Shown here piece by piece: positions 1-52,328 of a DNA stretch of 64,000 nt; position 1 is the first letter of the stretch, and every line of letters begins with the position of its first letter. The notes beneath the pieces were generated by a model. That model had not been told where the DNA came from. It ran no database searches and was given only the letters and a program-made list of their open reading frames with translations. A program made the translations under genes and the position numbers. Source of the DNA: an uncultured delta proteobacterium (GTDB lineage Bacteria; Desulfobacterota; Desulfobacteria; Desulfobacterales; B30-G6); assembly GCA_963823335.1 (NCBI GenBank), contig CAWGLD010000001.1, positions 96,001-160,000 on the forward strand, in the 5' to 3' direction.

Positions 1-184
1 TATAAACCAAAACGATACAATAGACTGCGAAAAAACTATAGGGTCTGGGGGAGATTTTTTTTCGCCTGGCCCCGGAGATGTTGTTGATATAGGAACTTGT
101 TTTTAACTAATGTGAAGTAATTTATAAAATTGGTTCATTATAATAAACAGGGTCACGATGGCTCTGCCTGTTCATTAAATTATT

Positions 185-362
185 GTGGATCTCTCCAGCA
201 AAAATAAGGTTATCAGACACCCTAAAAATTACCGGTGTGCGAAAATAATCACAACAGGCCAAAACTTGCATTGATAGACCCTGCCGTGATACCTTGGTGA
301 TGACCAGATGGTATCTGAAAAATCCCCAACTTGTCGGATAGTTGGACTTGTCTCCATGTATC
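185..362 (+). repeat. ~175-bp cassette-separating module, copy R1 (variant right half)
   Basis: gtggatctctccagcaaaaataaggttatcag...accggtgtgcgaaaataatcacaac...ggacttgtctccatgtatc; aligns by eye with R2-R11. Confidence 0.95.
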
Positions 363-366
363 GGTA

Positions 367-2415
367 TTGCGACACGAAGTCGCGTATTTTAACTGTTCAG
401 CGGAGGCATTTAGCCTTTGTCTGAACCCAGTGTCCCGTCGCTGCGATCCTATGGAAGCATGCGCTCAAGGTGCATCCTTGACGGGTATGAAGCCTTCCCG
501 ACAATGCGCCGAAGTTCGCCTGTGCGAGCGGTGTGGAAACCGTGAGGTGGAAACGCTCCTGGAAGCTCCATCCGGGTGAGGTGTTAGGATAGGATACTAT
601 GGTCAACGTAAGTAAACACTTGTAACTGCCGTGAATATGAACAAGCCAAAGGAGCTGTGAGGCTTGAACCAAAACGGTAAGTGGGTGGTTCGGATGGATT
701 GCTGAACGTCCGACACGGGCAGTATTCCCACCGGCAGAGCAGAGTGGACCTAAGGTATTCGCTGTTGGATACGTGGAACGTGGTAACCTCATGCCTTCGC
801 CTTCGGGCAGGCTAACCGTAAGGCATGCTGTGGGAGGTATGAGGAGAGAGGATGGAAGAAGCGAAGGCCATCCTGTAATGGGGTGGATACAGGTTGAGAG
901 CCTTAGGCTCGATATTACCTAACCCGCGAGGGGGCTGACGTCCATCGGGTGCTTCGTTGCGAGATAGTTTGTAGAACTTCTAAAGGAGGAAAAGCAAATG
1001 AGGGCTGCTAAAAAGCAGATCCATGCGTCCTCCCGCCGTACTCTTAAGTGGACTTCCATAAACTGGAAGAAAGTTAAGAAGAAGGTGAAGGAGCTGCAGA
1101 TGCGTATCGCAAAGGCCGTTCGAGAAGGAAAGCTACGGCTGGTTAAATCTTTGCAGTGGCTTTTGACTCATTCGTTTTATGGTAAACTTTTTGCCATAAG
1201 ACGGGTTGTTACCAACAAAGGAAAAGCAACACCGGGATCCGATGGTGTTGTGTGGAACTCATCTAAAAAGAAGATGCAAGCTGTAAACCTGCTAAGCCGA
1301 AGAGGATATCGTCCTTTCCCCCTTCGGCGGGTTTATATACGGAAGAAAAACGGCAAACTCCGACCTTTAAGTATTCCCACCATGAGGGATAGAGCAATGC
1401 AGGCTCTATATGCACTTGCTCTGGTACCAGTAGCAGAGACAATCGGTGACCTAAATTCGTACGGGTTCAGAGATGGTCGATGTTGCGCCGATGCCATTAA
1501 GCAGTGCTACAATTGTCTGGCAAAGCGTCGTTCCTCGCGGTGGATTCTTGAGGCCGACATTCAAGCCTGCTTCGATAGAATCGATCACGAATGGATGCTC
1601 AACAATATCCTGACTGATAAAAAGATACTTAGAAGCTGGCTAAACGCCGGATACATAGACGAGGGTAAACTTTATCCAACCAAAGCGGGTACTCCACAGG
1701 GATCAGTTATCTCTCCTGTACTTGCCAATATGACCCTGGATGGACTGGAAGCGGCTATTAGAAATGCAGTTCCCAAGAACGCCAAGGTCAACATGATCCG
1801 GTATGCAGATGACTTTATCGTAACTGGAAAATCAGAAGAGATTCTCCAGGAAAAAGTCAAGCCTGCAATCCGCGCATTTCTCAGCCAAAGAGGTTTAAAT
1901 CTCTCAGGCGAGAAAACAAGGATCACCAGGATAGAGAATGGATTTGATTTTCTGGGCCAACATCTGAGAAAATTTGGGGATAAGTTTATTGTTACCCCAT
2001 CAAAGAACTCGGTGAAAGGCATTGTTTCCAAAACAAAGGAAGTCATCAAATCCCATCTTGGCAACGCAACAGCGGAGATGCTACGAGAGCTCAACCCAGT
2101 AATCCGGGGATGGGCCAACTATCACCGCCATGCATGCTCCAAGAAAGCCTTCAACTATGTTGATTCCCGCATCTTCAATAATCTCTGGATATGGGCTAAA
2201 AGAAGGCATCAGGATAAAAAGGCCCAGTGGATACGAAATCGTTATTTTCGAACCATTGGTAACCGGCAATGGTGTTTTTTTGCAACCAAAAAGGCAGAGG
2301 GAGGTGGGGTTGGCGTCATCGATTTGGTCTATATGGCCACGGTAAAAATAGTTCGTCATACGAAAATCCGTGGCAAGGCAAATCCTTACGACAATAGATG
2401 GCAGGGATATTTTTC
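367..2415 (+). mobile_element. Group II intron (CL1-like), 3'-truncated; no domain V/VI seen
   Basis: TTGCGACACG 5' end at 367; ~630-nt structured leader; RT ORF; no GAGCCG...CGGTTC domain V recognisable after the ORF; 3' limit approximate. Confidence 0.8.
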
Positions 2416-2443
2416 CAAACCTTGTAGAATGAAGACTTATTAG
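998..2443 (+). CDS. ltrA: Group II intron reverse transcriptase/maturase
   Basis: INWKKV..LQMRIAKA N-terminus, RPLSIPTMRDRAMQ, GTPQGSVISP, YADD, maturase LNPVIRGWANYH; no endonuclease domain. Confidence 0.95.
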   Translation: MRAAKKQIHASSRRTLKWTSINWKKVKKKVKELQMRIAKAVREGKLRLVKSLQWLLTHSFYGKLFAIRRVVTNKGKATPGSDGVVWNSSKKKMQAVNLLSRRGYRPFPLRRVYIRKKNGKLRPLSIPTMRDRAMQALYALALVPVAETIGDLNSYGFRDGRCCADAIKQCYNCLAKRRSSRWILEADIQACFDRIDHEWMLNNILTDKKILRSWLNAGYIDEGKLYPTKAGTPQGSVISPVLANMTLDGLEAAIRNAVPKNAKVNMIRYADDFIVTGKSEEILQEKVKPAIRAFLSQRGLNLSGEKTRITRIENGFDFLGQHLRKFGDKFIVTPSKNSVKGIVSKTKEVIKSHLGNATAEMLRELNPVIRGWANYHRHACSKKAFNYVDSRIFNNLWIWAKRRHQDKKAQWIRNRYFRTIGNRQWCFFATKKAEGGGVGVIDLVYMATVKIVRHTKIRGKANPYDNRWQGYFSKPCRMKTY

Positions 2444-2480
2444 CGAAATCTTCAGTTCGATAAAATTTTACAAACACAAC

Positions 2481-3234: not shown

Positions 3235-3281
3235 TGTACTTGGATGATATTTGGATTTTCACAGGGGATAAAGGTGGAATA

Positions 3282-4130
3282 ATGGGTTTTCATAGAAAGA
3301 CATTGGTCGATGGACTTATATTTGGCGAAGGCCCGCGTTGGCATGATGATCGCCTATGGTTTTCTGATATGCAGGCAGGCTTAGTTATGGCCACAGATAT
3401 TGATGGAAATTGTGAAAAAATTGTTGATGTGCCAGGGAGCCCATCGGGTCTCGGATGGCTACCAGACGGCCGGCTATTGGTTGTGTCTATGATCGATCGG
3501 CGTTTGCTCAGGATGGAAGGCGAACGGCTCATTGAACATGCTGACCTGAGTAATATTGCCACCTGGCATTGCAACGATATGGTTGTAGATGGCAAGGGAA
3601 ACGCCTATATTGGTAATTTTGGTTTCGATTTAGAGGTTAATGATATCAAGCCTGTTGAAGCCACAATGGCCATGGTAACCCCTGAGGGTGAAGTTACGCC
3701 TGCTGCTGATGGGCTACTGTTTCCAAATGGAACAGTTATTACCTCAGATGCCAGAACTCTAATTGTTGCTGAAACATATGGAGCAAGGCTCACAGCTTTT
3801 GATATTCAATCAGATGGTACTCTGACGAATCGTCGTCTGTTCGCTGATGTCTCTCCACACTTCCCTGATGGGATATGCCTCGACACTGAAGGTGCAATAT
3901 GGGTTGCTGATCCAGTTGGTGGTGAATGCATTCGTGTACTCGAGGGGGGTGAAATTACCCATAGAATTGATACAGGGCGCGGATGCTTTGCCTGCATGCT
4001 TGGGGGGGCGAATCGGAATACACTTTTTATGATGACTGCCGGTGATTTTAGAACAGATACCGTTGTACGGGCCCAAAATGGTAAGGTTGAATATGTTGAA
4101 GTTGATGTACCAGGTGCTGGTTGGCCGTAA
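3282..4130 (+). CDS. SMP-30/gluconolactonase/LRE family protein
   Basis: GEGPRW, ND..VD..G, FPNG, PDGICLD; ATG at 3282 follows an RBS-like aaggtgg. Confidence 0.9.
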   Translation: MGFHRKTLVDGLIFGEGPRWHDDRLWFSDMQAGLVMATDIDGNCEKIVDVPGSPSGLGWLPDGRLLVVSMIDRRLLRMEGERLIEHADLSNIATWHCNDMVVDGKGNAYIGNFGFDLEVNDIKPVEATMAMVTPEGEVTPAADGLLFPNGTVITSDARTLIVAETYGARLTAFDIQSDGTLTNRRLFADVSPHFPDGICLDTEGAIWVADPVGGECIRVLEGGEITHRIDTGRGCFACMLGGANRNTLFMMTAGDFRTDTVVRAQNGKVEYVEVDVPGAGWP

Positions 4131-5623: not shown

Positions 5624-6948
5624 GAGGGTGTTCAAAATTTTGTGTCAGTCTAACTGAAAGCTGATATATACAGCCCAAAGGAGACTGACATGCCAAAAGA
5701 TAATGCAGATTTTGATTTCCAGAAAGCCCTCAAAGCCATCCAATCAGGCAAGCCCCTTACTGGCAAAGACGGGGTGCTCACCCCATTAATCAAGAACCTA
5801 ACCGAAGCTGCACTCGAAGGGGAGTTAGACTCCCATCTTGGACAGGAGATAGCGGCCAATCGAAGAAACGGTAAGAGCAAAAAGACCATCAAGACCCTGA
5901 ACGGCTCCTTCGAACTGAACACTCCCCGTGAGCGCAACGGCACTTTTTCACCCCAGCTGATTAAAAAGCATCAGACGACCATCAGCGATGAGATCGAAGA
6001 AAAAATCATTGCCATGTACGGCCTGGGCATGAGCTATAAAGACATATCTTTTCATCTTGAGGATATCTATGGCATTTCTGTCTCTAAGGGCACTCTGACT
6101 GCGATTACAGATAAAATCATTCACACCGTGAAAGAGTGGCAAGCCCGGCCGCTTGAAACGATATATCCCATTGTCTGGCTTGATGCCATACACTACAAAA
6201 TCCGTGAAGATGGCAAGGTCCTCAGTAAGGCTGTTTACACGATCCTCGGGGTCAATATTGAAGGCCGCAAGGAGGTCCTTGGCCTGTATATCTCAGAGAA
6301 CGAAGGGGCCAACTTCTGGCTGCAGGTGCTGACCGATCTCTCTAACCGTGGCGTTGCCGATATCCTGATCGCCTGTATTGATGGGCTAAAAGGCTTTCCA
6401 GAAGCCATCGAGACAATCTTCCCCAAAACGGAAGTGCAACTTTGTGTGGTGCATCAAATTCGGAATTCCTTAAAATACGTTGGCTCCAAAAACCAGAAGG
6501 AATTCATGGTCGATCTCAAGCGCGTCTACAAAGCAGCCAACAAGGATTTAGCCGAATCCGAATTGGACAAGCTCGAAGCCAAGTGGAACGACAAGTATCC
6601 GATTGTCATTAAGTCCTGGCGCAACAACTGGGAGCGTCTGAGTCAATTCTTCAAATACCCGGAGGATATCCGCAGGATCATTTACACAACGAACACCATT
6701 GAGGCGGTTCACCGTCAATTCCGTAAGCTGACCAAGACTAAAGGCGCTTTTCCGAACCAGGACAGTTTGTTGAAATTACTGTATATGGGCATCCAGAATG
6801 CCAGTAAAAAATGGACCATGCCGGTTCAGAACTGGTCATTAACTATCTCTCAGTTGGCTATATTTTTTGAGGGCAGACTGGATAAAGAATTAAAGCTCTG
6901 ATATGATTAATTACAATTTAAAACTGACACAGAATTCTGAACATACCC
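5624..6948 (+). mobile_element. IS256-family insertion sequence
   Basis: Imperfect terminal IRs gagggtgttcaaaattttgtgtcagt / actgacacagaattctgaacataccc; no target duplication seen. Confidence 0.9.
5690..6901 (+). CDS. IS256-family (Mutator) transposase
   Basis: RNGK, WLDA, DGLKGF, QLCVVHQIRNS, IYTTNTIE. Confidence 0.95.
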   Translation: MPKDNADFDFQKALKAIQSGKPLTGKDGVLTPLIKNLTEAALEGELDSHLGQEIAANRRNGKSKKTIKTLNGSFELNTPRERNGTFSPQLIKKHQTTISDEIEEKIIAMYGLGMSYKDISFHLEDIYGISVSKGTLTAITDKIIHTVKEWQARPLETIYPIVWLDAIHYKIREDGKVLSKAVYTILGVNIEGRKEVLGLYISENEGANFWLQVLTDLSNRGVADILIACIDGLKGFPEAIETIFPKTEVQLCVVHQIRNSLKYVGSKNQKEFMVDLKRVYKAANKDLAESELDKLEAKWNDKYPIVIKSWRNNWERLSQFFKYPEDIRRIIYTTNTIEAVHRQFRKLTKTKGAFPNQDSLLKLLYMGIQNASKKWTMPVQNWSLTISQLAIFFEGRLDKELKL

Positions 6949-7356: not shown

Positions 7357-9123
7357 ATGCCCACAGAAAAAAGAGCCACACGCAAACTCAGAGCCATTCT
7401 TTCTGCTGATGTTAAAGGCTACAGCATCCTTATAGCGGATGATGAGACCTTCACAATCAAAACTATTAAAGAATATCGAAGCATAATATCCAACTGCATC
7501 GAGCAATATGCCGGTCGGGTTGTGGATAGTCCCGGTGATAACATACTGGCGGAGTTTGCAAGTGCGGTTGATGCTGTACAGTGTGCAGTGGAAATTCAAA
7601 AACAATTGAAGAAAGAAAATGACCGGCTTGTAGAGAACAAAAGGCTGGAGTTCAGAATTGGTGTGAACATCGGTGATGTTGTGCAGGATGAGAATCGTAT
7701 CTATGGTAATGGTGTTAACATTGCCTCAAGGATTGAGGGTTTGGCAGATCCTGCTGGCATCTGTGTATCTCGCAGTGCATACGATCAGATAAAAAATAAA
7801 ATGGGTTTCAGTTTTGAATATATGGGGGAACACTCTGTTAAAAATATATCTGAACCAGTAAGAGTTTATAAAGTTCTAATGCATTCTAATTCACCATCAC
7901 CTTTGGTTGAAGAGACGCTGAAGCTGCCGGACAAACCATCCATTGCAGTCTTGCCATTTGTAAACATGAGTGGAGATCCTGAGCAGGAGTATTTTTCTGA
8001 TGGAATAACAGAAGACCTCACAACTGTTCTGTCACGGAATTCGTTGATGTTTGTGATAGCACGGAACTCCAGCTTCGCCTACAAAGGAAAGGCAGTCGAT
8101 GTAAAAAAAATTAGCAAAGAACTTGGGGTTCATTATGTATTGGAAGGAAGCGTACGAAAGGCAGGAACAAGAATCCGTGTAACAGCACAGCTTATTAATG
8201 GGATTAATGGAAAGCATGTATGGGCAGAGAAATATGATGGTGAGCTTCAAGACATTTTCGATTTGCAGGATCAAATAACACAAAAGATTGTTGCTTCAAC
8301 CCAAACCCAAGTAGCATTAAGTCTTGGAGAAGTCAGAACAGCTGCAAGACATGAAAACTTAGATACTTGGGATATTACCGCAAAAGCTTTAAAATATAGT
8401 TATGATCTAACTGAAGACAGTCTTAGAAAGGCTGAAAAACTCTTACGATCAGCCATAAAGTCAAATCCAAAATCTGATTCTGCTTATGCTTTGCTTGCAA
8501 GTGTTTTATTTCATCTATTATTGATGGGGTATGAACAGGAGAACGTTAGTGAAATTTTAAATGAATCTTTTCAATACTCAGCAAAAGCAATATCAATTAA
8601 TGAATCTAATGAAATTGGGCATTGGATTAACGGAAACCTTCAGCTATTTTCCAGAAGAAATCATGATTATGCGCTTGCGGAGTATGATCGTCTGATAGAA
8701 ATAAATCCTAATAATTCGTTAGCATATGGCTCTCTCGGCGCTGCCCTAACATTTTCCCGAAAATATGATCAAGCAATAAAAAATATTGAATTAGCAATAA
8801 GAATTAATCCTATGGACCCAAGCATATTTTTTCGATTCTCTGAAATAGCATTGGCTTATCTTCTTAAAGGAAAATATAACGATGCAATTGATTGGTCAAC
8901 CAAGTGTATCCATAAAAGATCCAGTTGGATAGCTGGTCATTTTGTTTTAATAGCATCTCTTGTAAATCTTAATCGTCTCGATGAAGCAAAACAAGCAACC
9001 AAGGAGTTGTTGAATACCAACCCAACTGCAAGAGCATCTGATATTTCAATGTATCCGTTTAAATACGCTGAAGATGTGATAAAGTTACAAAAAGCTCTCT
9101 GTAAAGCAGGTCTACCTGAATAA
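7357..9123 (+). CDS. Class III adenylate/guanylate cyclase with TolB-N-like and TPR domains
   Basis: ILSADVKGYS, PGDN, FRIGVNIGD, GNGVNIASRIE; DKPSIAVLPF; TPRs. Confidence 0.9.
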   Translation: MPTEKRATRKLRAILSADVKGYSILIADDETFTIKTIKEYRSIISNCIEQYAGRVVDSPGDNILAEFASAVDAVQCAVEIQKQLKKENDRLVENKRLEFRIGVNIGDVVQDENRIYGNGVNIASRIEGLADPAGICVSRSAYDQIKNKMGFSFEYMGEHSVKNISEPVRVYKVLMHSNSPSPLVEETLKLPDKPSIAVLPFVNMSGDPEQEYFSDGITEDLTTVLSRNSLMFVIARNSSFAYKGKAVDVKKISKELGVHYVLEGSVRKAGTRIRVTAQLINGINGKHVWAEKYDGELQDIFDLQDQITQKIVASTQTQVALSLGEVRTAARHENLDTWDITAKALKYSYDLTEDSLRKAEKLLRSAIKSNPKSDSAYALLASVLFHLLLMGYEQENVSEILNESFQYSAKAISINESNEIGHWINGNLQLFSRRNHDYALAEYDRLIEINPNNSLAYGSLGAALTFSRKYDQAIKNIELAIRINPMDPSIFFRFSEIALAYLLKGKYNDAIDWSTKCIHKRSSWIAGHFVLIASLVNLNRLDEAKQATKELLNTNPTARASDISMYPFKYAEDVIKLQKALCKAGLPE

Positions 9124-9170
9124 AGGATATCTGTTGTATATCTCATATCTTTCAGATATTCAAAATAGTG

Positions 9171-9346
9171 TAGTATCTCCAACAAAAACAAGGTTATCAG
9201 ACCCCTGAAAATTTACCGGTGTGCGAAAACAATCACAACAGACGGAATCTTGCATTGGTAAGGTCTCCCATGGTACCGTGGGCATGACCGTATGGTATCG
9301 GCAATAATTTCGTTGAATTTGATAACTGGACTTGTCTCCATGTATC
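9171..9346 (+). repeat. Module copy R5
   Basis: tatctccaacaaaaac...ggacttgtctccatgtatc. Confidence 0.95.
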
Positions 9347-9559
9347 TGCAATTGAATGATAGTCGGTTTTATGCTTGACTGAACATAATTCCTCCTCTAT
9401 ATTCGATTAATCTATACTAAAACTTCACTTCCTCTGAATCTGAATATCCAATTCTAACTCTACACTTCATCTGAAGCTGCCCTGTCAAAGCTGTAAGCTT
9501 TTCTTTCTTCACTTCGATCATTGATAAAACCTAATATTAATCTGAAAGGAGGACATGAA

Positions 9560-9967
9560 ATGCGAAAACTCACAGCTATCATCCTTGTACTTGGAGTTAT
9601 TTTGTTTCTTCAAAGTTGTGCCATGTCTGAGAAAAAATTACCGGAACCAGAAGGTGTATTGCTTGGTCAGGGTGAATTGGAACAGCTCTTTAGCAAAAAT
9701 ATAGGTTTTGATGGCCGGTATAATAAAATGTCTTACGCCAATTTTAGAACGCAAATACAACCTGATGGAAAACAAATTACGACTTGGTTTAATAAAGATG
9801 GCGAACAAGGTGAATCAATGAATGGAATGTATACGATTAAAAATGGACAAAAATGTGATAATTATATTGGTGAAGAGAAATGCTGGAAATATTATAAAAT
9901 TGATCAAGAGAAATATTATATTGAAACCAATGACGGTTCTGAATTTCGTTATTTATCGCGTTTTTAA
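9560..9967 (+). CDS. Hypothetical lipoprotein
   Basis: RBS aggagg, lipobox LQSC. Confidence 0.75.
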   Translation: MRKLTAIILVLGVILFLQSCAMSEKKLPEPEGVLLGQGELEQLFSKNIGFDGRYNKMSYANFRTQIQPDGKQITTWFNKDGEQGESMNGMYTIKNGQKCDNYIGEEKCWKYYKIDQEKYYIETNDGSEFRYLSRF

Positions 9968-10283
9968 CCATGAATAAAAATATTCCCTATTCAATCATGA
10001 GGGTCTTTATGATTGCCGAATGCCGTATTTTACGAATTAGTGGGATCCATGGTCCTCGTTAACTGGATCACGCATACTTTTTGATGCCGATGAAGATGAC
10101 GCGATTATTGGAATGTCGGTTCCGTAATCAAAAGATACACCAATGCATTTTAAATCTCTGATAAAAGGCGGAATAAAGAATGGTTTCGCCTTTTGCTAAT
10201 TTTATATGCTTAACCATCCCTGAAACTTATATTGATTGACAGGTATTTCAAATTCTATGCTTTTCATAGCCCCGTAAAATATG

Positions 10284-10462
10284 GTGCTGTCTCCAACGAT
10301 TCGGTAGATATCAGAGTGCTGAAAATTTACCGGTGTGCGAAAATAATCACAACAGACCAATTCTTGCATTGGCAGGACCTCCCGTGATACCGTGGGCATG
10401 TCCATATGGTATCAGCAATATTGCCGTTGAACTTGGTAACTGGACTTATCTCCATAAATCAC
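10284..10462 (+). repeat. Module copy R6
   Basis: gtctccaacgattcgg...ggacttatctccataaatcac. Confidence 0.95.
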
Positions 10463-10564
10463 AGTTTCCAGTTTGAAGACTTATTAGCGTAGCCTTCAGT
10501 TTGGTATTATTTTCATCGACCACAAGATGTGGTATCGGAAATTTTAGATGAATGGTGTAGCTCC

Positions 10565-11032
10565 ATGAACCTACGACCCGCCACGAGCGAAGATTTGAAG
10601 ACCATCATCTCCTGGATCAAGGATGAAACAGCCTGCCGGACGTGGGCGGGACCGATGGTGAGATTTCCCCTCAACCCGGAGGGCCTTGCCCATGCCATTG
10701 AATTTGAGCCGGGCAATTCCTATTGCCTGATGGAAGATGAGAGCATTTTTGCCTTTGGCCAGTTGATAAGAAAGAGCCCAAAACGCCTTCATATGGCCAG
10801 GGTCATCGTAGCGCCGAGAAAAAGGGCATCCGGACTTGGTGGGCAATGGTGCCGTGAGCTGATGGCGCTGGCCCGGAAAAAGGGTTGTGAAACCATCACA
10901 CTGAATGTTTACAGAGACAATACTGCCGCCTGCAGGATATATATCAGCAACGGCTTCATGGAGGTTGCTGAAAAATCAACCCAGGAATTGTGCCATATGA
11001 TCCTCCGCTGCGGTAGTCCAAATAATAGTTAA
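10565..11032 (+). CDS. GNAT family acetyltransferase
   Basis: LRPAT..D, RASGLG, LNVYRDN.AA..Y...GF. Confidence 0.85.
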   Translation: MNLRPATSEDLKTIISWIKDETACRTWAGPMVRFPLNPEGLAHAIEFEPGNSYCLMEDESIFAFGQLIRKSPKRLHMARVIVAPRKRASGLGGQWCRELMALARKKGCETITLNVYRDNTAACRIYISNGFMEVAEKSTQELCHMILRCGSPNNS

Positions 11033-11052
11033 GTCAAGGATAGGGAACACCT

Positions 11053-11228
11053 AGCACTCTCCAACAAAAACAAGGATATCAGACCCTTAAAATATTACCG
11101 GTGTTTGAAAATAATCACAACAGGCAGAATCTTGCATTCATAAGCCCTAAAATGGTACCATGGCGATCACCAGATGGTATCGGTAATATTGGCATTGATC
11201 TTGATAACTGGACTTATCTCCATGTATC
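11053..11228 (+). repeat. Module copy R7
   Basis: ctctccaacaaaaac...ggacttatctccatgtatc. Confidence 0.95.
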
Positions 11229-11585
11229 AGTACCTGACTGGCACTATGTTTTAGTATAAGATGTGTAAATCTATTCATTACTTTTTGGATAATCTTTTCC
11301 ACAATCAGGCATAACTTCCAGCAGCAGAATCAGCGTGACCCCTACTAATGTTCTGTTTATCAAAACCTTCCAATCTTGCACAATAATTGCATTCACCAAT
11401 AAAGATAAAAAAGTTGTCATTTAGTTGGCTTGTTGCAATGATTGAAAAACGTTATCTATCTGCGGATAGTGGAAGTCTCAATACATCTATGCTTCATCTG
11501 ATAGTTGATTTTCAGAGTTCTTAGACTATGATAGTCTAAATTGACCAGACCTCAACCGGATTCTCGCGCTGGAAAGGAGTTGGAA

Positions 11586-25436: not shown

Positions 25437-25584
25437 AACGAATATGAGAAATTGGCATTTTTAGCAGGGTCAGAAATGGCCCTGCTTTTTTCGTGATACC
25501 TCCATCAACGGTGTAGAGGACTTCTGAAAAGTTGTGATACTACATTGTAAATGCTTGTTCTAACTTGCTTTTCAAATTAGTCAA

Positions 25585-29644: not shown

Positions 29645-30181
29645 TACCCATACCGTACCCGGAAAAACCTCTATTAGATCTGAGAAATATGATGAAAAAC
29701 ATCATAATCACAGCAATTGTTATTTTTATAGTCGTCGAACTTATCGAACATATTATTTTCCCGATAGTTTGGTACATCTTGAAAGGGAGGAAAAAATCTA
29801 CGTATGGTGTGACCAGCATGATAGGGAAAGTTGTTGAGATTCGTACATGGCATAATACTAAAGGACAAGTATTAATCAACGGCGAGTTATGGAAAGCTGA
29901 ATGCGAGGCTTCCTTACCCGTTGGTGGCAAAGCGGTGGTTTATGATATTGATGGACTTACATTGAAGTTAAAGCCTTACGAAAATTCATAGAGGAGATTT
30001 TACTGCCTTAATCCATAAATATTTATCATAATGGAAGGTGCTTCATGAAAACAGACTTATACGCAAAGACCATCTTGACCATTATCGCTATCTGCCTGCT
30101 GTATATGACTTGCAGGGATATGGTAGTACCAGCTTATGCAGATCGTAACGATATCGTTGACGTCAATATCGTAGCAGTGAG
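29645..30181 (+). repeat. 537-bp near-identical direct repeat, copy 1 (copy 2 at 43175-43711)
   Basis: Identical by eye except ~3 substitutions. Confidence 0.95.
29689..29991 (+). CDS. NfeD-like C-terminal (OB-fold) membrane protein, copy 1
   Basis: TM helix, GQVLINGELWKA. Confidence 0.8.
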   Translation: MMKNIIITAIVIFIVVELIEHIIFPIVWYILKGRKKSTYGVTSMIGKVVEIRTWHNTKGQVLINGELWKAECEASLPVGGKAVVYDIDGLTLKLKPYENS

Positions 30182-42756: not shown

Positions 42757-43218
42757 AGGGTTCAGACGCACCCCCCACCACAGACATTGTAACGTCAAGC
42801 CGTAAGATGGTAAGTGGGGACGTTCGTGCTGAACGTGCATGGCTCCGGTTCTTCGGATAAGGTATTTTTGCAAATAGGTGCATGTCCGATAGTTCTTTGC
42901 GGCTTTGGTTTCCGGTTGTAAAAAGAAAAAATAACCACTAAGGCGCGAAGGACATTTCAGAGATCGGAGGTCAGAAGTCAGAAGTCAGAAATCAGAGGTC
43001 AGGGTTTAAAATAAGATCAGAAACGAACCTCAAAGGCGCGAAGGACGCTAAGATTTTGTTTTTTACCTGATCGGGGTAACCGATCAGGTAAATCATCATG
43101 CCCTGCTGACAACATTCACGAATTCGATATCTAACCAAACTGTGCGCCCTTTATTAATGTTGGAATTAATCTCCTACCCATACCGTACCCGGAAAAACCT
43201 CTATTAGATCTGAGAAAT

Positions 43219-43521
43219 ATGATGAAAAACATCATAATCACAGCAATTGTTATTTTTATAGTCGTCGAACTTATCGAACATATTATTTTCCCGATAGTTT
43301 GGTACATCTTGAAAGGGAGGAAAAAATCTACGTATGGTGTGACCAGCATGATAGGGAAAGTTGTTGAGATTCGTACATGGCATAATACTAAAGGACAAGT
43401 ATTAATCAACGGCGAGTTATGGAAAGCTGAATGCGAGGCTTCCTTACCCGTTGGTGGCAAAGCGGTGGTTTATGATATTGATGGACTTACATTGAAGTTA
43501 AAGCCTTACGAAAATTCATAG
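43219..43521 (+). CDS. NfeD-like membrane protein, copy 2
   Basis: Identical to copy 1. Confidence 0.8.
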   Translation: MMKNIIITAIVIFIVVELIEHIIFPIVWYILKGRKKSTYGVTSMIGKVVEIRTWHNTKGQVLINGELWKAECEASLPVGGKAVVYDIDGLTLKLKPYENS

Positions 43522-45616: not shown

Positions 45617-45692
45617 GTGGTACGCTGGGCATGACCAGATGGTATCGGTAATAATTTGGTCGAGTTTGATAACTGGACTTGTCTCCATGTAT
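45617..45692 (+). repeat. Right half of the module
   Basis: gtggtacgctgggcatgaccagatggtatcggt...ggacttgtctccatgtat. Confidence 0.9.
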
Positions 45693-45738
45693 AGCAACCG
45701 TACATTTTATTAATTTCAGTCGATAGGACATCTGATCA

Positions 45739-46701
45739 TTGTTCAACTACAGAATACTCATATTTACATTCTTTATGTCGTCTTTTATGTCCCTTTCTTC
45801 AGTTGCTCATGCACATTTCTCTTTTACGGTCACTTCTGATCAAAGAAATTATGCTGGACCTGGAGCTTACGAAAACCCCAGCTATTTTAAGGGGATTGTT
45901 GAGGCTATCCAGAATAAAGGAGGCGGTGCCTTTATGATTAGTCCAGGCGACATTGACCCTCCTGCGGCATCAAAGTGGACGATTGAACAGGTTCTGGGAA
46001 TGAATTACATATGGTATCCGGTCGTAGGAAACCACGAACTCCCTGGAAAAGGCAAAGAAGATTATTATGGCTCAAACATGGAATGGCTGCGAGGGTACAA
46101 TTACGATGCCAACGGTTATGGAATACAGCCTGATATTGTGAACACTGGTCCTTCTGGATGTCCAGGAACTACTTACTCCTTCGATTATGATAATGCGCAT
46201 TTTGTTGTAGTAAACAATTATTGCGACAACGATGGGGACAATGTTACGAACGGTGATATCACTGAACATTTATACAACTGGTTGGCAAGCGATTTGACTG
46301 CTACCAACAAGGAACACATTTTCGTTATCGGCCATGAACCCGCTTATCCTCAACCCGACGCCGACAATGGTCGGGCTCGCCATATGGAAGACAGTCTAAA
46401 TTCAAACCCAGCAAATCGCGATCGTTTTTGGAAGCTCTTAAATAAGGCGGGTGTGTTAGCCTACATTTGCGGTCATACGCACAATTACAGCGTGGTAAAA
46501 ATTGAAGGGGTCTGGCAGATAGAAAGTGGCCATGCGCGTGGACAAGGAGATTTAGGTGCCCCAAGTACGTTTCTAATAATTCATGTAAACGGTGACACGG
46601 TGGAGTTTAACACCTACCGCGATGTTCATAATGAAGTGTATGATTACATTGATATCATACACAGAGGGACACTGAAATCTAAAGTTAAAGCAATGGACTG
46701 A
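45739..46701 (+). CDS. Calcineurin-like metallophosphoesterase, probably secreted
   Basis: SD, PGD, GNHE, GHEP, GHTH. Confidence 0.88.
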   Translation: MFNYRILIFTFFMSSFMSLSSVAHAHFSFTVTSDQRNYAGPGAYENPSYFKGIVEAIQNKGGGAFMISPGDIDPPAASKWTIEQVLGMNYIWYPVVGNHELPGKGKEDYYGSNMEWLRGYNYDANGYGIQPDIVNTGPSGCPGTTYSFDYDNAHFVVVNNYCDNDGDNVTNGDITEHLYNWLASDLTATNKEHIFVIGHEPAYPQPDADNGRARHMEDSLNSNPANRDRFWKLLNKAGVLAYICGHTHNYSVVKIEGVWQIESGHARGQGDLGAPSTFLIIHVNGDTVEFNTYRDVHNEVYDYIDIIHRGTLKSKVKAMD

Positions 46702-47276
46702 ATATGCGAGAAGCCATTGTAAAGGAAGCCGATATTGTAATGCCTGAAGTGGAAATAGCCAAGGTTTCCATGAGAATTATGTTGTCGTTAATCAATACAG
46801 GCAAAAAAATATTTGGGAAAGAGCCTATTGATGTTGGGGCTGTCCAATTGGAAGGTTTTATCAATTGGCTAATAAAGGGGTATAGGGGAGCAACATAATA
46901 ATTTGCGGTGTAAAATATGCCTACTCCTAACCGGTGTTTGCAACGCAAGAATACGGCTATAATCGTTCAGTCTGAGCAATTGTCCGAAGACTGAAGACGC
47001 CCATAAAACCACAATTATTTCTCAGAAGGACTAGAGCTATCTCAAAAAAGTTTTTTGACCCAATTTCTGTGTTGGTCCTTGCTTCAACTCCTCGGAATAC
47101 TTCAGTATGCCTGCGGGTTGAAGTTCGGGCCCGCCTTGAACTTGAGCCAAAACCCTTTTTTTGAGATGGCTCTATACCATTTTTTACGGCAAATGGTTTC
47201 ATTCCATCTCAGTGCCGCTGTATCGATGATCTTTTTGCGTACAGGCCACAATTATGGTGAAATCATTTACAAATGA

Positions 47277-48167
47277 TTAAGCGGCAGCGGGATTGGCTTC
47301 TCGTCTAACAAGATAAAGACCGCTCGACACAATGATAGCCGCCCCAAAGATGGTCCAGCCATCCGGTAGATCTCCAAACAGGAAAAACCCAAGAATCGTA
47401 GCCCAGATGAGTGACGTATAATTAAATGGTGCCAACAAAGATGCCGGCGCTTTTTCAAATGCCTTAATCATGAAAAAGTGGCCTACCGCTCCGAGAAATC
47501 CAAGCCACATCAGGTGTAACCATTGTATAGGAGATGGAGCTTTCCAGAAGAATAGAATCATAACGCTCGAAAGGATCAAACCACCAGTGCTTGTATAGAA
47601 TAGTGTCGTTAATGCGTTATCTCTTTGTCCAAGAATACGAGTTGTTATCAGAATAGTAGCGTAAAAAAAGGCCGATAATAGTGGAAATATCACCGCCCAA
47701 TGAACAATTCCCATTCCGGGTCGTATAACAAATATCACACCAAGAAGCCCTATGATTACACTGCCCCAACGATGAGAACCGAACTTTTCACCTAATAGAA
47801 ACACTGCGAGTATGGTAACCAATAATGGTGAAATGAAAGATATCACCGTGCAATCAGCAAGGGGCAAATACATCAACCCTGACCAAAACGTCACGCCCGC
47901 GCCAAATATTAGAACAGAACGAAGGATCTGCAATTTTAGGTTCTTCGTGAATATAATATCTCTTGGTGCCCCTCGCAAAAAGAATATCGTGAAAAAAATA
48001 AAATGAAAAAAATAACGCCCCCACATCACCATCCATAAAGGGAGCTCTCTACAAACATACTTTGCTGATGCATCCAATATAGAGAAACAAGCGGTCATGA
48101 TAATCATTAAACCGATGCCATATAGTGGACTATTCAAAGGTGAAGATAGTGTGAGATTGTTTGACAT
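47277..48167 (-). CDS. DMT/EamA transporter
   Basis: 10-TM pattern, LLGEK, APF.Y. Confidence 0.9.
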   Translation of the reverse strand: MSNNLTLSSPLNSPLYGIGLMIIMTACFSILDASAKYVCRELPLWMVMWGRYFFHFIFFTIFFLRGAPRDIIFTKNLKLQILRSVLIFGAGVTFWSGLMYLPLADCTVISFISPLLVTILAVFLLGEKFGSHRWGSVIIGLLGVIFVIRPGMGIVHWAVIFPLLSAFFYATILITTRILGQRDNALTTLFYTSTGGLILSSVMILFFWKAPSPIQWLHLMWLGFLGAVGHFFMIKAFEKAPASLLAPFNYTSLIWATILGFFLFGDLPDGWTIFGAAIIVSSGLYLVRREANPAAA

Positions 48168-48294
48168 TTGTTGTTGGTCTGCCTATTCAGGTCAGCATCA
48201 AATTTATGAAAAGCGTGTCTGTCTATCAGCATCTGGTAGCGTGTGTCAATTCATTTAAAACATCCGATCAATTCCAATACTCGCCAAACAGCCC

Positions 48295-48421
48295 TGTGTT
48301 CGATTATATTCACAACTACCCAAACCTTGCCAAAACAGTTCTCCCCGTGATACCTTGGAAAAAGCCAAAGCGTATCGGCGATATTGCTATAAATTCCAAT
48401 ATGTAAAATTCTCCATGTCTC
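48295..48421 (+). repeat. Diverged module copy
   Basis: gtgttcgattatattcacaac...ttgccaaaac...gtgataccttgg...tatcgg...ttctccatgt. Confidence 0.75.
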
Positions 48422-48500
48422 TGTGGCCACTGATATCTGGTTTTCAGGTTATGGGTACTAAGCGTAGAATTTGGATTTCGCACAAATCGGAGGCTTCCAT

Positions 48501-49082
48501 ATGTCAACCTGTTGGATTACAGTAATTTCACCGGATTCAGCCTCAGGCATGCTAAAAGATGTCTACGAACGAGTGAAATCACCCAGTGGTCAGGTTGACC
48601 GTGTCTACCAGGCTCAAAGTCTGAGGCCGGATATCATTCTGGGACACGACCGGCTGTATCGTAGCACGCTTCATTTTGAAGACCCAGCATGCCCATCATG
48701 GTTTCTTGAGGCTGTCGCAGTTTATACCAGCGTATTGAACCGATGCCCCTATGCAGTGGAACATCATTATGCCAACATGAAACATCTGTTGGGAGAACCC
48801 AATCGTTCAGCGGATATTCTGGATGCATTTCAAAACGACAGCCTGGACGTAGTTTTTGAAGGCAAGGAGCTGCATTTGTTGATGTATGCAAGGAAGCTGA
48901 CCAAAACGCCAGACAAATTATATCGCATCGACATCGATCAATTGAGGGAACAGGGTGCCAAAGATGAAGAGATACTGGAGGTCAACCAGGTGGCAGCCAG
49001 CTTTAATTACTCCAATCGTGTTATTAACGGACTCGGTGTCAAGCTTGGCAATGAACAGGTTGGATACTATGAAACAAAGTGA
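48501..49082 (+). CDS. Peroxidase-related AhpD/CMD family protein
   Basis: E.VAV.TS.LN.C.Y...HH, FNYSNR..NGLGV. Confidence 0.85.
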   Translation: MSTCWITVISPDSASGMLKDVYERVKSPSGQVDRVYQAQSLRPDIILGHDRLYRSTLHFEDPACPSWFLEAVAVYTSVLNRCPYAVEHHYANMKHLLGEPNRSADILDAFQNDSLDVVFEGKELHLLMYARKLTKTPDKLYRIDIDQLREQGAKDEEILEVNQVAASFNYSNRVINGLGVKLGNEQVGYYETK

Positions 49083-49273
49083 GCTGGCTTTGAAATAAAA
49101 TAGTCAAACAACCCTGGCGATCGTATGATCAACATGTCAATCCAGTTTAATCTCTTATTCTCAGGGCGAGAAATTAGTTGACATACCATATTGTGATATA
49201 CGTTGAGGATGGAACCTCCGACCAATGAAACGTTCGTGTTCCCTCCATTCACGCCATGGCCCTGCTCTTACCT

Positions 49274-49397
49274 GTGGTATCTAACAACAAAACGGTAGAT
49301 ATCAGACCCCTGAAAATTGCCGGTTTGCGAAAATAATCACAACAGGCGAAATCTTGCACTCATAGGCTCTTCCGTGGTACCGTGGGCATAACCAGAT
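49274..49397 (+). repeat. Left two-thirds of the module (includes the promoter motif)
   Basis: caacaaaacggtagatatcag...aataatcacaac...gtggtaccgtgg. Confidence 0.9.
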
Positions 49398-49431
49398 AGA
49401 GACTTTCAATTGTCGATAAGGAGGGAATATT

Positions 49432-50511
49432 ATGAAAGTATTAGCCCTTAATTCCAGTGCACGGACCGGGGGCCAGAGTAAAACCGAACTGATGCTAAGC
49501 CACTTGGTAGAAGGAATGCACGAGGCAGGAGCCGATGTTGATGTGGTCAATCTACTGGAAAAGAATATAAAAAACTGTGTCGGGTGCTTTTCCTGTATGA
49601 CCAAAACCCCGGGGAAATGTGTGCTCAAGGACGACATGACAGGAGAGCTCTTCCCAAAATGGCTGGAATCCGACCTGATTATATACGCCACACCTCTATT
49701 CCATCATACTGTCAATGCAACCATGAAGACCTTTATAGAGAGAACCTTTCCGATTTGCGAACCCTTCCTCCTGGAAAGGGAGGGGCGCTGGGTTCACCCC
49801 CTTCGAAGGAATCACCCTGGGGCAGTGGTTCTTTCCGTATGCGGGTTTCCCGCAATGTCCGCCTTTAGCGCCCTGACTCACTACGCGAAATTTCTTTTTG
49901 AAGAGCAGGAAAAAGGGAGGCTATGGGCCGAAATCTATCGCCCAGCTGCCGAATTTATGTACCGAAACGTCGATAAGCAGAAAGATATACTCGACGCCAC
50001 CAGGCAGGCGGGGAGGGAACTCGTGGAGGCTCACAAGGTTTCTCCGGGAACACTAGCGCGCATAGAACAGCCACTTGCTGATAATCTTTCTGATTTTGCA
50101 AAGATTACAAACTGTATGTGGGGGACCTGCATTGCCGAAGGGATTACCAAGAAAAAATTTGAGAAACAAGATATGATACCCAGACCCGATTCAATCGAGA
50201 CTTTTATGCTCCTGATGCCCATGGGATTTAATCCTGAACGTGCCGGTGATACAAAAGCGACCTTACAGTTCGAATTTACAGGCAGCGTGGAAGGCTCATG
50301 CCACCTTATAATTTCAGATGGAACTATCAAGGCCAGGGAAGGAAAATCAGAAAAACCGGATCTTGTAATAAAGACACCCTTCGATGTCTGGATGGATATT
50401 CAAACCGGCAAAGCGGATGGAGGTCAGATGTTTATGGAGGAAAAGTATAAGGCAGAGGGTGACATGGAGCTGTTATTGAATATGAGTAAGTTCTTCGGCC
50501 AGAACCATTAG
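49432..50511 (+). CDS. Iron-sulfur flavoprotein/NADPH-FMN reductase with SCP2 domain
   Basis: CVGCFSC...PGKC, YATP; C-terminal SCP2-like fold. Confidence 0.85.
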   Translation: MKVLALNSSARTGGQSKTELMLSHLVEGMHEAGADVDVVNLLEKNIKNCVGCFSCMTKTPGKCVLKDDMTGELFPKWLESDLIIYATPLFHHTVNATMKTFIERTFPICEPFLLEREGRWVHPLRRNHPGAVVLSVCGFPAMSAFSALTHYAKFLFEEQEKGRLWAEIYRPAAEFMYRNVDKQKDILDATRQAGRELVEAHKVSPGTLARIEQPLADNLSDFAKITNCMWGTCIAEGITKKKFEKQDMIPRPDSIETFMLLMPMGFNPERAGDTKATLQFEFTGSVEGSCHLIISDGTIKAREGKSEKPDLVIKTPFDVWMDIQTGKADGGQMFMEEKYKAEGDMELLLNMSKFFGQNH

Positions 50512-51488: not shown

Positions 51489-51644
51489 GTTAATTCCCTC
51501 CTACTACTCTAAGTTTAGGTGCAGTCCCCATTCCGGTATCGACATCATTCAGGCTATTGCCAAGTCATAGCTTCTTTGGCACCACCTTGGTAGTGGTCAT
51601 AGATCATGGTTGCTTCCAAGGTATAATGCCCATAAGCTTCTGGA

Positions 51645-51765
51645 CGGTCAGGGTGTTCGTCCCTTGAGCGCTTGCTTCCATAGGATCGCAGCGACGGGAC
51701 GCTGGGTTCAGAAAAGAATTTAACACCCCCGCTGAACAGTCAAAATACGCGACTTCGTGTCGCAA
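51645..51765 (-). mobile_element. 5' fragment of a related group II intron
   Basis: Reverse complement matches 367-~480 (ttgcgacacgaagtcgcgtattt...gtcccgtcgctgcgatcctatggaagc). Confidence 0.85.
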
Positions 51766-51769
51766 TACC

Positions 51770-51878
51770 GATACATGGGAGATATCCAGTTATCAAACGC
51801 AACCAAATTATTACCGATACCATTAGGTTATGCCCAAGGTATCATGGGGAGGACTGTTTTGGCAAGGTTTGGGTATTC
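51770..51878 (-). repeat. Inverted, diverged module copy
   Basis: Reverse complement: acccaaaccttgccaaaac...tgataccttgg...tggtatcggtaat...gataactggatatctcccatgtatc. Confidence 0.85.
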
Positions 51879-52328
51879 GTTAATCTGATACCGTTTCCCC
51901 GCTCGGTAAAACCCGTTTTTCCGTTCTGATCAGGCAACCTCAAGGAGGTGAATATTGGCCACCCGCTTGCACAGGCTGTACATTCTTTGCAGTTTATCCA
52001 AAGCGGACACCTCTATACATTAGCCCAACCATTATTTCAAATCAGTTTAAACATACAAGACAGGAAATATTATGATATCATCACCTCGGCTGGACTCGCC
52101 TGAGCCGGTGATATCAGATAAAACTTAACAGCACATGGTTCGATGAAGAGCTCGAAAATACAATTCTTGACCCATCCTTCCAAATCAGGTACTAATTTTA
52201 TAGTCGCTTAAATCACACCTGCTCTGATGCTGGATCTCATTTCCAACGGACCTAACCTCTTTCTGTAACAGATATTGCATTTCCAAGACGTATCATCTTC
52301 TTCAAACCCCAACCAGAAGGTGATCCAC

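Follow-up and report, generated by a model that had tools for sequence, protein, structure and literature searches.

A group II intron lies near the left end of a 64,000-nt stretch of DNA (the window) from an uncultured sediment bacterium, a delta proteobacterium of the order Desulfobacterales (lineage B30-G6; GenBank assembly GCA_963823335.1, contig CAWGLD010000001.1, positions 96,001 to 160,000). This copy, which we call copy A, sits directly 3' of ...TCCATGTaTCGGTA, at the right end of an intergenic module of about 190 nt. The source genome (G000; 4.37 Mb in 11 contigs) contains 89 matches to a profile of this module, in about ten arrays. (Names such as G353, C9, and L020 are our labels for genomes, contigs, and loci; coordinates without a contig are window positions.) The features at this end of the window are:

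179–366, forward strand: module copy m188, the source of the 5' exon (nhmmer profile match at C1:96179-96380, E = 4.9e-57; repeat families D1–D4)
367–2420, forward strand: intron copy A, with domains I–IV and the open reading frame (ORF) of a reverse transcriptase (RT), without the last 174 nt (the end of the ORF and domains V and VI)
426–583, forward strand: core of domain I (Rfam RF02012, group-II-D1D4-7; 79.5 bits with a gathering score of 34, E = 1.1e-14)
998–2443, forward strand: RT/maturase ORF of 481 amino acids, whose last 7 codons and stop come from the 3' exon
2421–2469, forward strand: 3' exon, with 9 nt (CTTGTAGAA) followed by a cassette leader that is homologous to 10474–10513 (repeat D15)

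Very probably, 367–2420 is a decayed copy of a mobile group II intron of the same kind as the published intron UHB.I2, with a IIB1 RNA and a chloroplast-like 1 (CL1) type RT. Its lineage homes by base pairing to a motif at the module's end, and it has left three independent and now dead insertions in this genome.

A truncated intron at the end of a module

The sequence of 351–366 is tctccatgtatcggta, and the intron begins at 367 with TTGCGACACG (in a longer read, TTGCGACACGAAGTCGCG); its 5' end is TTGCGAC. The initial annotation had placed an intron start, TTGCG, at 367 just after the module end, and we agree. It had also called this a group II intron, which fits the RF02012 match and the domains of the RT, but the intron is not whole. 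The RF02012 match is the only Rfam match above the gathering score in the window, and the Rfam search found no match to RF00029 (domains V–VI) there. RF02012, which covers the core of domains I–IV, also matches loci L019 and L002.

The homology of copy A to L020 (96.6% identical) and to the metagenome locus L158 stops at 2420. L020 runs past the equivalent of this position with about 17 codons, a stop, and domains V–VI (RF00029 at 3847–3923, 52 bits). L020 ends in ...GGCTACCCGGT, which is followed by the 3' exon CCTGCC. Another relative, L112, is full-length at 2228 nt; its RT has about 485 amino acids from the first Met and ends 12 amino acids past the motif YFSKR. Because L020 and L112 continue to domains V–VI and the intron end, copy A must have lost its last 174 nt. 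With the catalytic domain V and the branch-point domain VI gone, copy A is a remnant and not a working intron.

The loss is precise. The 16-mer TGAAGACTTATTAGCG lies 9 nt past the insertion point in copy A, and it has the same spacing both in L052 and at the empty site that ends at 10464. As copy A keeps the 9-nt spacing (at 2412–2445), the right edge of its 174-nt terminal deletion must coincide with the 3' splice site to within about one base.

The intron boundaries are 5'-UUGCG...GGU-3' in all of the close copies, which departs from the consensus GUGYG...AY. The introns Th.e.I3/T.el4h (from Thermosynechococcus elongatus) and EcI5 (from E. coli) start with the consensus GUGYG. The boundaries of a distant relative of copy A, L071, are GUGCG...GAU.

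The RT ORF contains the Pfam domains RVT_N (E = 1.3e-29), RVT_1 (E = 1.4e-44), and GIIM (maturase, or X domain; E = 5.2e-22). Pfam shows no nuclease domain in this ORF, and there is no room for one either. About 12–17 amino acids are lost from the C-terminus of the RT in copy A; that of L112 extends about 12 amino acids further. The RT's best match in PDB is 6me0_C, the RT of T.el4h (E = 6.5e-167; residues 13–479 of the query and 18–482 of the chain). All of the remaining solved RTs have E = 9.3e-38 or weaker, and the RTs of class IIC introns have E = 1e-34 to 1e-37. The excerpts of a published account that concern Th.e.I3/T.el4h describe it as a IIB1 intron with a CL1 RT (PMC8643678). G000 has just one near-complete RT of the copy A type.

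Covariation of the exon-binding sites with the 5' exon

Targeting by a IIB1 intron involves exon-binding sites (EBS) in the intron and intron-binding sites (IBS) in the exon. For copy A, all on the forward strand, these and an empty target are:

353–359: IBS2, TCCATGT (exon positions −14 to −8), which pairs with EBS2
361–366: IBS1, TCGGTA (exon positions −6 to −1), which pairs with EBS1 with two G-U wobbles
635–641: EBS2, ATATGAA (alignment columns 309–315)
690–713: hairpin in domain I whose loop holds EBS1, TGCTGA, at 700–705
739–740: tentative EBS3 (intron position ~374), the only strongly variable column of domain I that pairs with the first base of the 3' exon
10450–10464: an example of an empty target site, CTCCATAAATCACAG, with the insertion point directly after it, in module m10286

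The hairpin at 690–713 folds as the initial annotation described, with a 7-bp stem and a 10-nt loop. Its folding energy is ordinary (z = −1.32; 16 of 200 shuffles fold equally well), so the support for EBS1 comes from covariation. In an alignment of 17 copies that keep both the 5' exon and domain I, we counted the pairs in the two proposed helices. Between EBS1 and exon positions −6 to −1, 88.2% of cells are paired and 4 of the 6 pairs have compensatory (two-sided) changes. Between EBS2 and positions −14 to −8, 77.3% of cells are paired, with two-sided changes in 4 of 7 pairs. For both helices together, 82.4% of the 221 cells are paired and 8 of 13 pairs change on both sides. In a shuffled control, 64.8% of cells are paired and 0 of 500 shuffles reach the observed value. 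The 17 copies are kin, so this control overstates the significance; a fairer control is to slide the partners by 1–3 columns, which leaves 29–44% of cells paired.

The variants of EBS1 track the exons: CTGTGA goes with TCACAG (a perfect match in L053 and L054), CTTTGA with TCAAAG (perfect in L073), TTGTGA with TCACAA (perfect in L126), TGGTGA with TCACCA (perfect in L152), and TGCAGA with TCTGTA. Similarly for EBS2, ATATTGA goes with TCAATAT (perfect in L057, L126, L139, and L152), ATATGGA with TCCATAT (perfect in L148), and NTCTTAA with GCAAGAA. Since both EBS1 and EBS2 covary with the exon, we conclude that the intron homes by base pairing to TCMATNN-A-TCNNNN, in which IBS2 (7 nt) and IBS1 (6 nt) are separated by a single base.

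Of 27 junctions from genomes, 20 have the TCMAT..A.. motif, 4 are GCAAG-like, and 3 are neither. A recognizable module of the G000 type lies upstream at 13 of the 27. The target is the 14-nt motif, not the whole module. In the 4.37 Mb of G000, the motif CTC[CA]ATNNAT[CA]NNNN occurs 204 times, versus about 33 expected, and 59 of these occurrences are at module hits. Also, all three of the intron copies in G000 (see below) are at module ends. Given both observations, the placement at junctions is not due to chance. The most common hexamers at the 59 module-end motifs include TCACCA (8), TCTGTA (8), TCGGTA (7), TCAAAG (5), TCACAG (5), and TCACAA (3), and the EBS1 variants are complementary to these same hexamers.

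The initial annotation had proposed that TGCTGA and TCGGTA pair as EBS1 and IBS1 and that a CL1-like lineage targets this cassette site, and it had suggested aligning the 5' exons of homologous introns as a check. The alignment of 17 copies, in which the exon partners of both EBS1 and EBS2 covary, along with the 20 of 27 junctions with TCMAT, bears out both proposals.

We propose that an active intron would retrohome in the sense orientation, with TC(C/A)AT-NN-A-TC-NNNN at a module's right end as its target. The site would be recognized by RNA-DNA pairing of EBS2 (635–641) with exon positions −14 to −8 and of EBS1 (700–705) with positions −6 to −1. By analogy to what is established for IIB1 introns, both pairings would guide reverse splicing into the top strand of the DNA. 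The EBS1 hexamer differs among sub-lineages, and its variants match the small set of hexamers at module ends. Because the RT has no nuclease domain, we infer that the cDNA is primed from nascent strands at replication forks. Three independent insertions took place in G000, and each has since decayed.

Copies, relatives, and alternative explanations

The second copy in the window, copy B, is on the other strand:

51557–51661, reverse strand: remnant of the C-terminal part of a tyrosine recombinase gene, directly next to the stump of copy B (its frame-2 translation includes GHYTLEATMIYDHYQGG and runs to a stop)
51662–51765, reverse strand: intron copy B, a 104-nt 5' stump (90% identity by BLAST over 117 nt, including 13 exon bases)
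51766–51872, reverse strand: right part of the module that forms the 5' exon of copy B (nhmmer match at C1:147872-147752, profile positions 87–208)

The intron start TTGCGACACG recurs on the minus strand at 51765, directly after ctcccatgtatcggta. The initial annotation had reported this diverged 5' fragment after another module copy and had counted two insertions. Both of these are real, but there is a third copy in the genome, copy C, at C9:19326-19592. In copy C, intron nt 1 to ~258 directly precede the last ~7 nt (CCCGGT), which lead into a 3' exon. The 5' exon of this copy is tccatatatctgta, with TCTGTA as IBS1, and its module belongs to a different subtype. We take the GHYTLEATMIYDHYQGG motif next to copy B to be that of a tyrosine recombinase; BLAST of this fragment against the other recombinases of G000 gave weak matches.

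To survey relatives, we searched 401 sampled genomes of the order. The first 634 nt of the intron matched in 55 of them, and 15 genomes besides G000 have copies that start at intron nt 1–7. Among 20 loci that we fetched, 7 are ORF-less derivatives of ~837 nt, in which intron nt 1–637 are joined to the last ~115 nt. Two more are minis of ~513 nt, one reaches a contig end within the RT, another is a full-length but distant relative, and the remaining loci are 5' fragments. The ORF-less copies keep the 3' segment with domains V–VI. Over nt 1–975 and 2021–2054 (975 + 34 nt), copy A has a 100% identical counterpart in the metagenome locus L158. In L158, the ORF is deleted, the 3' end is intact, the module is a different one, and the flanking cassettes are not found in G000. 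An identical intron with an intact 3' end in another module implies that the sub-lineage of copy A was recently active. We also sought the empty site in G000 that would be orthologous to L158: modules matched, but cassettes did not.

The first 18 nt of the intron are found in at least 120 metagenome stretches. We examined 80 of these loci, with introns that are from 100% to ~45% identical to copy A. When the EBS1 hairpin was sought with a strict regular expression, just 1 of the 80 matched, and alignment to the close copies was used instead. The 5' exons are TCMAT at 12 loci, GCAAG-like at 7, end in GTTRR at 11 (which we likened to the R' core of attC by eye and by regular expression only), and are of other kinds at 50. 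We therefore rejected the idea that the whole set is junction-homing. Rather, the 18-mer marks a broad IIB group, and only the close relatives share the TCMAT target. We also considered a hot spot of 5' fragments that end at intron nt 113–126, but it is largely an artefact: of 7 fragments, L067 runs into masked N and L065 and L070 are at contig ends. The real truncations that we inspected in this range are copy B, L063, and L068 only; the 146-nt fragment L062 is separate.

In a genome from another family (G326, contig C29), the same lineage is found at about position 401 of locus L058, at the center of a perfect palindrome (between AAAACACAG and TTGTGTTTT) and after TGGCAAG. A TCTCAAT site lies ~45 nt further on. 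Judging from the sequence, the palindrome would be a second type of target.

Several observations weigh against the reading of 367–2420 as a base-pairing, CL1-type mobile intron. Contig C20 of G353 has three mini-introns (L060, L061, and L074) of 511–515 nt that are at three module ends, yet lack the regions of both EBS1 and EBS2. These minis are 96–99% identical, their upstream 200 nt are 72–75% identical, and their downstream flanks are unrelated. As both EBS sites are absent, homing by base pairing cannot explain them; our guess is that gene conversion among resident copies put them there. Imperfect pairing is another concern. Several copies have 1–2 mismatches to their own exon (L052 has one), L055 has EBS1 CTGTGA with the exon TCACCA, which is a poor pairing, L138 pairs poorly at both EBS sites, and copy A itself has a C·A mismatch at exon position −13. 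The best candidate column for EBS3 pairs with the first base of the 3' exon in just 7 of 10 copies. The putative membership of the RT in CL1 comes from its similarity to one solved structure. Finally, G000 has no intact copy, so mobility is inferred from relatives.

The initial annotation recognized that its two copies might derive from one duplication. More generally, a single ancestral insertion might have spread together with its module through segmental duplication, in which case the shared junction would be uninformative about targeting. All three copies do share the junction, all are degenerate, and segments with modules do duplicate and recombine in these arrays. However, the upstream 190 nt of copies A, B, and C are 45–62% identical, while their intron parts are 84–90% identical (measured on stretches of 112 and 258 nt, the shorter of which extends 8 nt beyond copy B). 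Together with the different IBS1 and module subtype of copy C, this rules out a single duplication. Furthermore, the changes that distinguish the variable hairpin of domain I in copies A, B, and C leave its pairing intact, and the EBS1 variants in other genomes match their own exons, which duplication cannot yield. Thus, we consider duplication highly unlikely as the source of the shared position. The three copies are independent insertions at the same position of the module, as had been suggested for the two in the window. All three are dead: copy A by terminal loss, copy B as a stump, and copy C by internal deletion.

The initial annotation also raised a functional link between the RT and the array. 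The host might have kept the RT for use by the array, where it could produce or move cassettes via an RNA intermediate, for instance, and the ribozyme would be dispensable. This would fit with the 481 open codons despite the loss of domains V and VI, with a deletion that stops so close to the 3' splice site, and with the lack of an integron integrase above the cut-off in a genome with 89 module matches. But there is one such RT for about ten arrays, and it is missing its C-terminal ~12–17 amino acids. Its relatives are mostly ORF-less (7 of ~837 nt plus the 2 minis among the 20 loci), and L158 is the same intron with the ORF deleted. Two genomes from the same genus, G159 and G393, have modules and no match to the intron. 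Across the RT region of L020, the DNA is 96.6% identical and the protein is 94% identical over the matched part, which does not point to strong purifying selection on the RT. We found no sign of a functional link, and a host role for the RT seems very unlikely. A strict co-occurrence of the intron with G000-type modules was rejected as well: of the 15 intron-bearing genomes, 5 have a module match (with two candidates per genome scored). Another alternative is a class C intron that recognizes a hairpin, as in classical integrons: class C introns (IIC-attC) are the established attC-homers, and some modules have a short hairpin (CCAACT..AGTTGG) ~20 nt upstream of the site. Copy A is inserted in sense rather than antisense, however, and none of the 16 pairs that are predicted for the module's fold is compensatory. 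The RT's similarity to IIC RTs (E = 1e-34 to 1e-37) is far weaker than to the CL1 RT (E = 6.5e-167). The EBS2-IBS2 pairing is supported by covariation, and class C introns lack EBS2, according to excerpts of PMC8643678. We view a class C origin as extremely unlikely.

The array, known introns, and the possible niche of the lineage

The module profile was built from ten modules in the window, where modules are found at 179–21314, 45618–49480, and 51752–51960 (reverse strand). The genes between the modules are mutually unrelated; among their products are two GNAT acetyltransferases, a gluconolactonase-like protein, a cytochrome c', an IS256-type transposase, cyclase-TPR proteins, a PAS-LuxR regulator, and a SulP transporter. 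Genomes from the same genus have the modules in common and almost none of the genes, and two of the array genes are present in sister genomes without any module. Where module m11054 is compared to G353, the modules are of different subtypes and are 69% identical, the next 234 columns, from TCTCCAT on, are 91.5% identical, and identity then falls to 34%. The drop lies beyond a short second site at 11450–11491 (a hairpin and TCTCAATACATCTATG). Because identity rises from 69% to 91.5% there, the right end of the module is a boundary between segments that assort independently, and the junction would be a recombination site.

The segment downstream of m11054 (11247–11491) contains ~205 nt of non-coding sequence, 91.5% identical to G353, between this module and a mini-site of ~42 nt (GTTATC, a short hairpin, and TCTCAATACATCTATG). 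As so short a site bounds the segment, the essential junction may be far shorter than the module. The motif GATATTTGG recurs 7–8 nt downstream of the insertion point in many modules (for instance, at 3248–3263 and at C7:213590-213605 of G000), and it resembles GATAACTGG inside the module. So the intron sits within a conserved region and not at its outer edge. Segments downstream of the junction often begin with NTTG, like the TTGCG of the intron.

No integron integrase was identified in G000: there is no match to TIGR02249 above the cut-off (the best is 88.5 bits versus 265). Rfam gave no match at E ≤ 1 over 9100–11300. The fold of the module by RNAalifold has 16 pairs, 0 of them compensatory, and no long covarying hairpin, and GTTRRRY is absent at the module-end junction. 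Nothing here identifies the module as an attC, and no attC model was run. Overall, the array looks like an undescribed cassette-array system without a recognizable integron integrase.

A tyrosine recombinase gene (225–277 amino acids) lies antisense inside a split module at C1:163761-164858 (L203) and C9:36153-36758 (L204) of G000 and at C18:1-1059 of G198 (L205). All are inserted at the same base in the center of the module, between AATAATCACAG and TTTGAAGG; the gene in L203 is at C1:164061-164738. The two copies in G000 are 96% identical and the copy in G198 is 98% identical. The best NCBIfam match is NF040815 (XerA/integron-integrase), at 88 bits, which is below the cut-off. This protein could be the array's recombinase or an element that targets modules. 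The tyrosine recombinases next to arrays are not one family, at 25–34% identity; one family is embedded in split modules.

Other elements are associated with these regions. G000 has a second and apparently complete group II intron at C7:233000-234910 (~2200–4110 of L072, reverse strand), with matches to RF02005 (70 bits) and RF00029 (38 bits) and an RT ORF of 440 amino acids. In another module array, it is oriented antisense to the cassettes and directly follows a long hairpin (GATCTGTGGCTTGCAA...TTGCAACCACAAGATC), not in a module. This placement is class-C-like behavior. Within the array in the window, there is an IS256/Mutator-family transposase gene at 5690–6901, and at C10:25926-28142 of G000, an ORF that is IS110-like by eye lies between the halves of a split module. 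Direct repeats of 300 nt at 29645–29944 and 43175–43474 (100% identical and 13,530 nt apart) bracket an operon-like block at ~30.5–42.8 kb. Repeats of 54 nt (family D8) are at 25583, 30328, 30419, and 44054.

Our literature search for IIB introns at cassette junctions identified UHB.I2 only. According to the parts of its description that we drew on (Sonbol & Siam 2021, Mob DNA 12:8; PMC7923331), UHB.I2 has a IIB1 RNA, a CL1-type RT, and the boundaries 5'-UUGCG...GU-3', and it is inserted in sense, directly after attC. The lineage of copy A shares the IIB1 RNA class, a putative CL1 RT, the UUGCG...GU boundaries, the same orientation as the cassettes, and the position at the downstream edge of an inter-cassette site. 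In both, EBS3 is unclear. In those same parts of the description, UHB.I2 follows a canonical attC on a metagenome contig from a soda lake, and its flanking exons are poorly conserved. Here, in contrast, the target in Desulfobacterales is TCMATNN-A-TCNNNN, where a module of ~190 nt ends that is not a canonical attC. The motif in the exon is also conserved here, in covariation with both EBS1 and EBS2, and most of the relatives are ORF-less derivatives. One published intron already shows this habit, at a cassette junction of another kind than the target described here.

Th.e.I3/T.el4h (PDB 6ME0 and 6MEC) and EcI5 are similar to copy A in that the 5' exon is recognized over its last ~13 nt by pairing with EBS1 and EBS2 of domain I (excerpts of PMC8643678). 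Unlike copy A, they are not known to be associated with cassette arrays, and the RT of T.el4h has 562 amino acids versus ~485–498 in the lineage of copy A. The group IIC-attC introns (S.ma.I2 and relatives) are, like this lineage, specialized on repeated inter-cassette sites. As the excerpts of PMC7923331 describe them, they differ in being class C, lacking EBS2, using the folded bottom strand of attC, and inserting antisense to the cassettes.

What is new here is a defined target that covaries with the intron, a junction in Desulfobacterales that is not an attC, and an ORF-less family. It is possible, although we think it rather doubtful, that the UUGCG...GU branch of IIB1/CL1 introns specializes in parasitizing the junctions of gene cassettes. 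Its members in Desulfobacterales would then be adapted to an undescribed type of cassette array without an integron integrase, and their repertoire of EBS1 sequences would mirror the small and discrete set of hexamers at junctions. The UUG at the intron's start may then imitate the NTTG of the downstream segment, so that an occupied junction still looks like one.

In any case, introns other than those of class C home to cassette junctions, and such junctions need not be canonical attC sites. In the parts of their paper that bear on targeting, the authors of UHB.I2 found no conserved target; here, the rule for the target comes from covariation. The lineage is a natural collection of IIB1 introns with changed targets and EBS1 variants to match, and it includes compact forms without an ORF. 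The introns also mark the right end of the module as a real boundary in an array system without a recognizable integron integrase, and that array system is a more unusual object than the intron.

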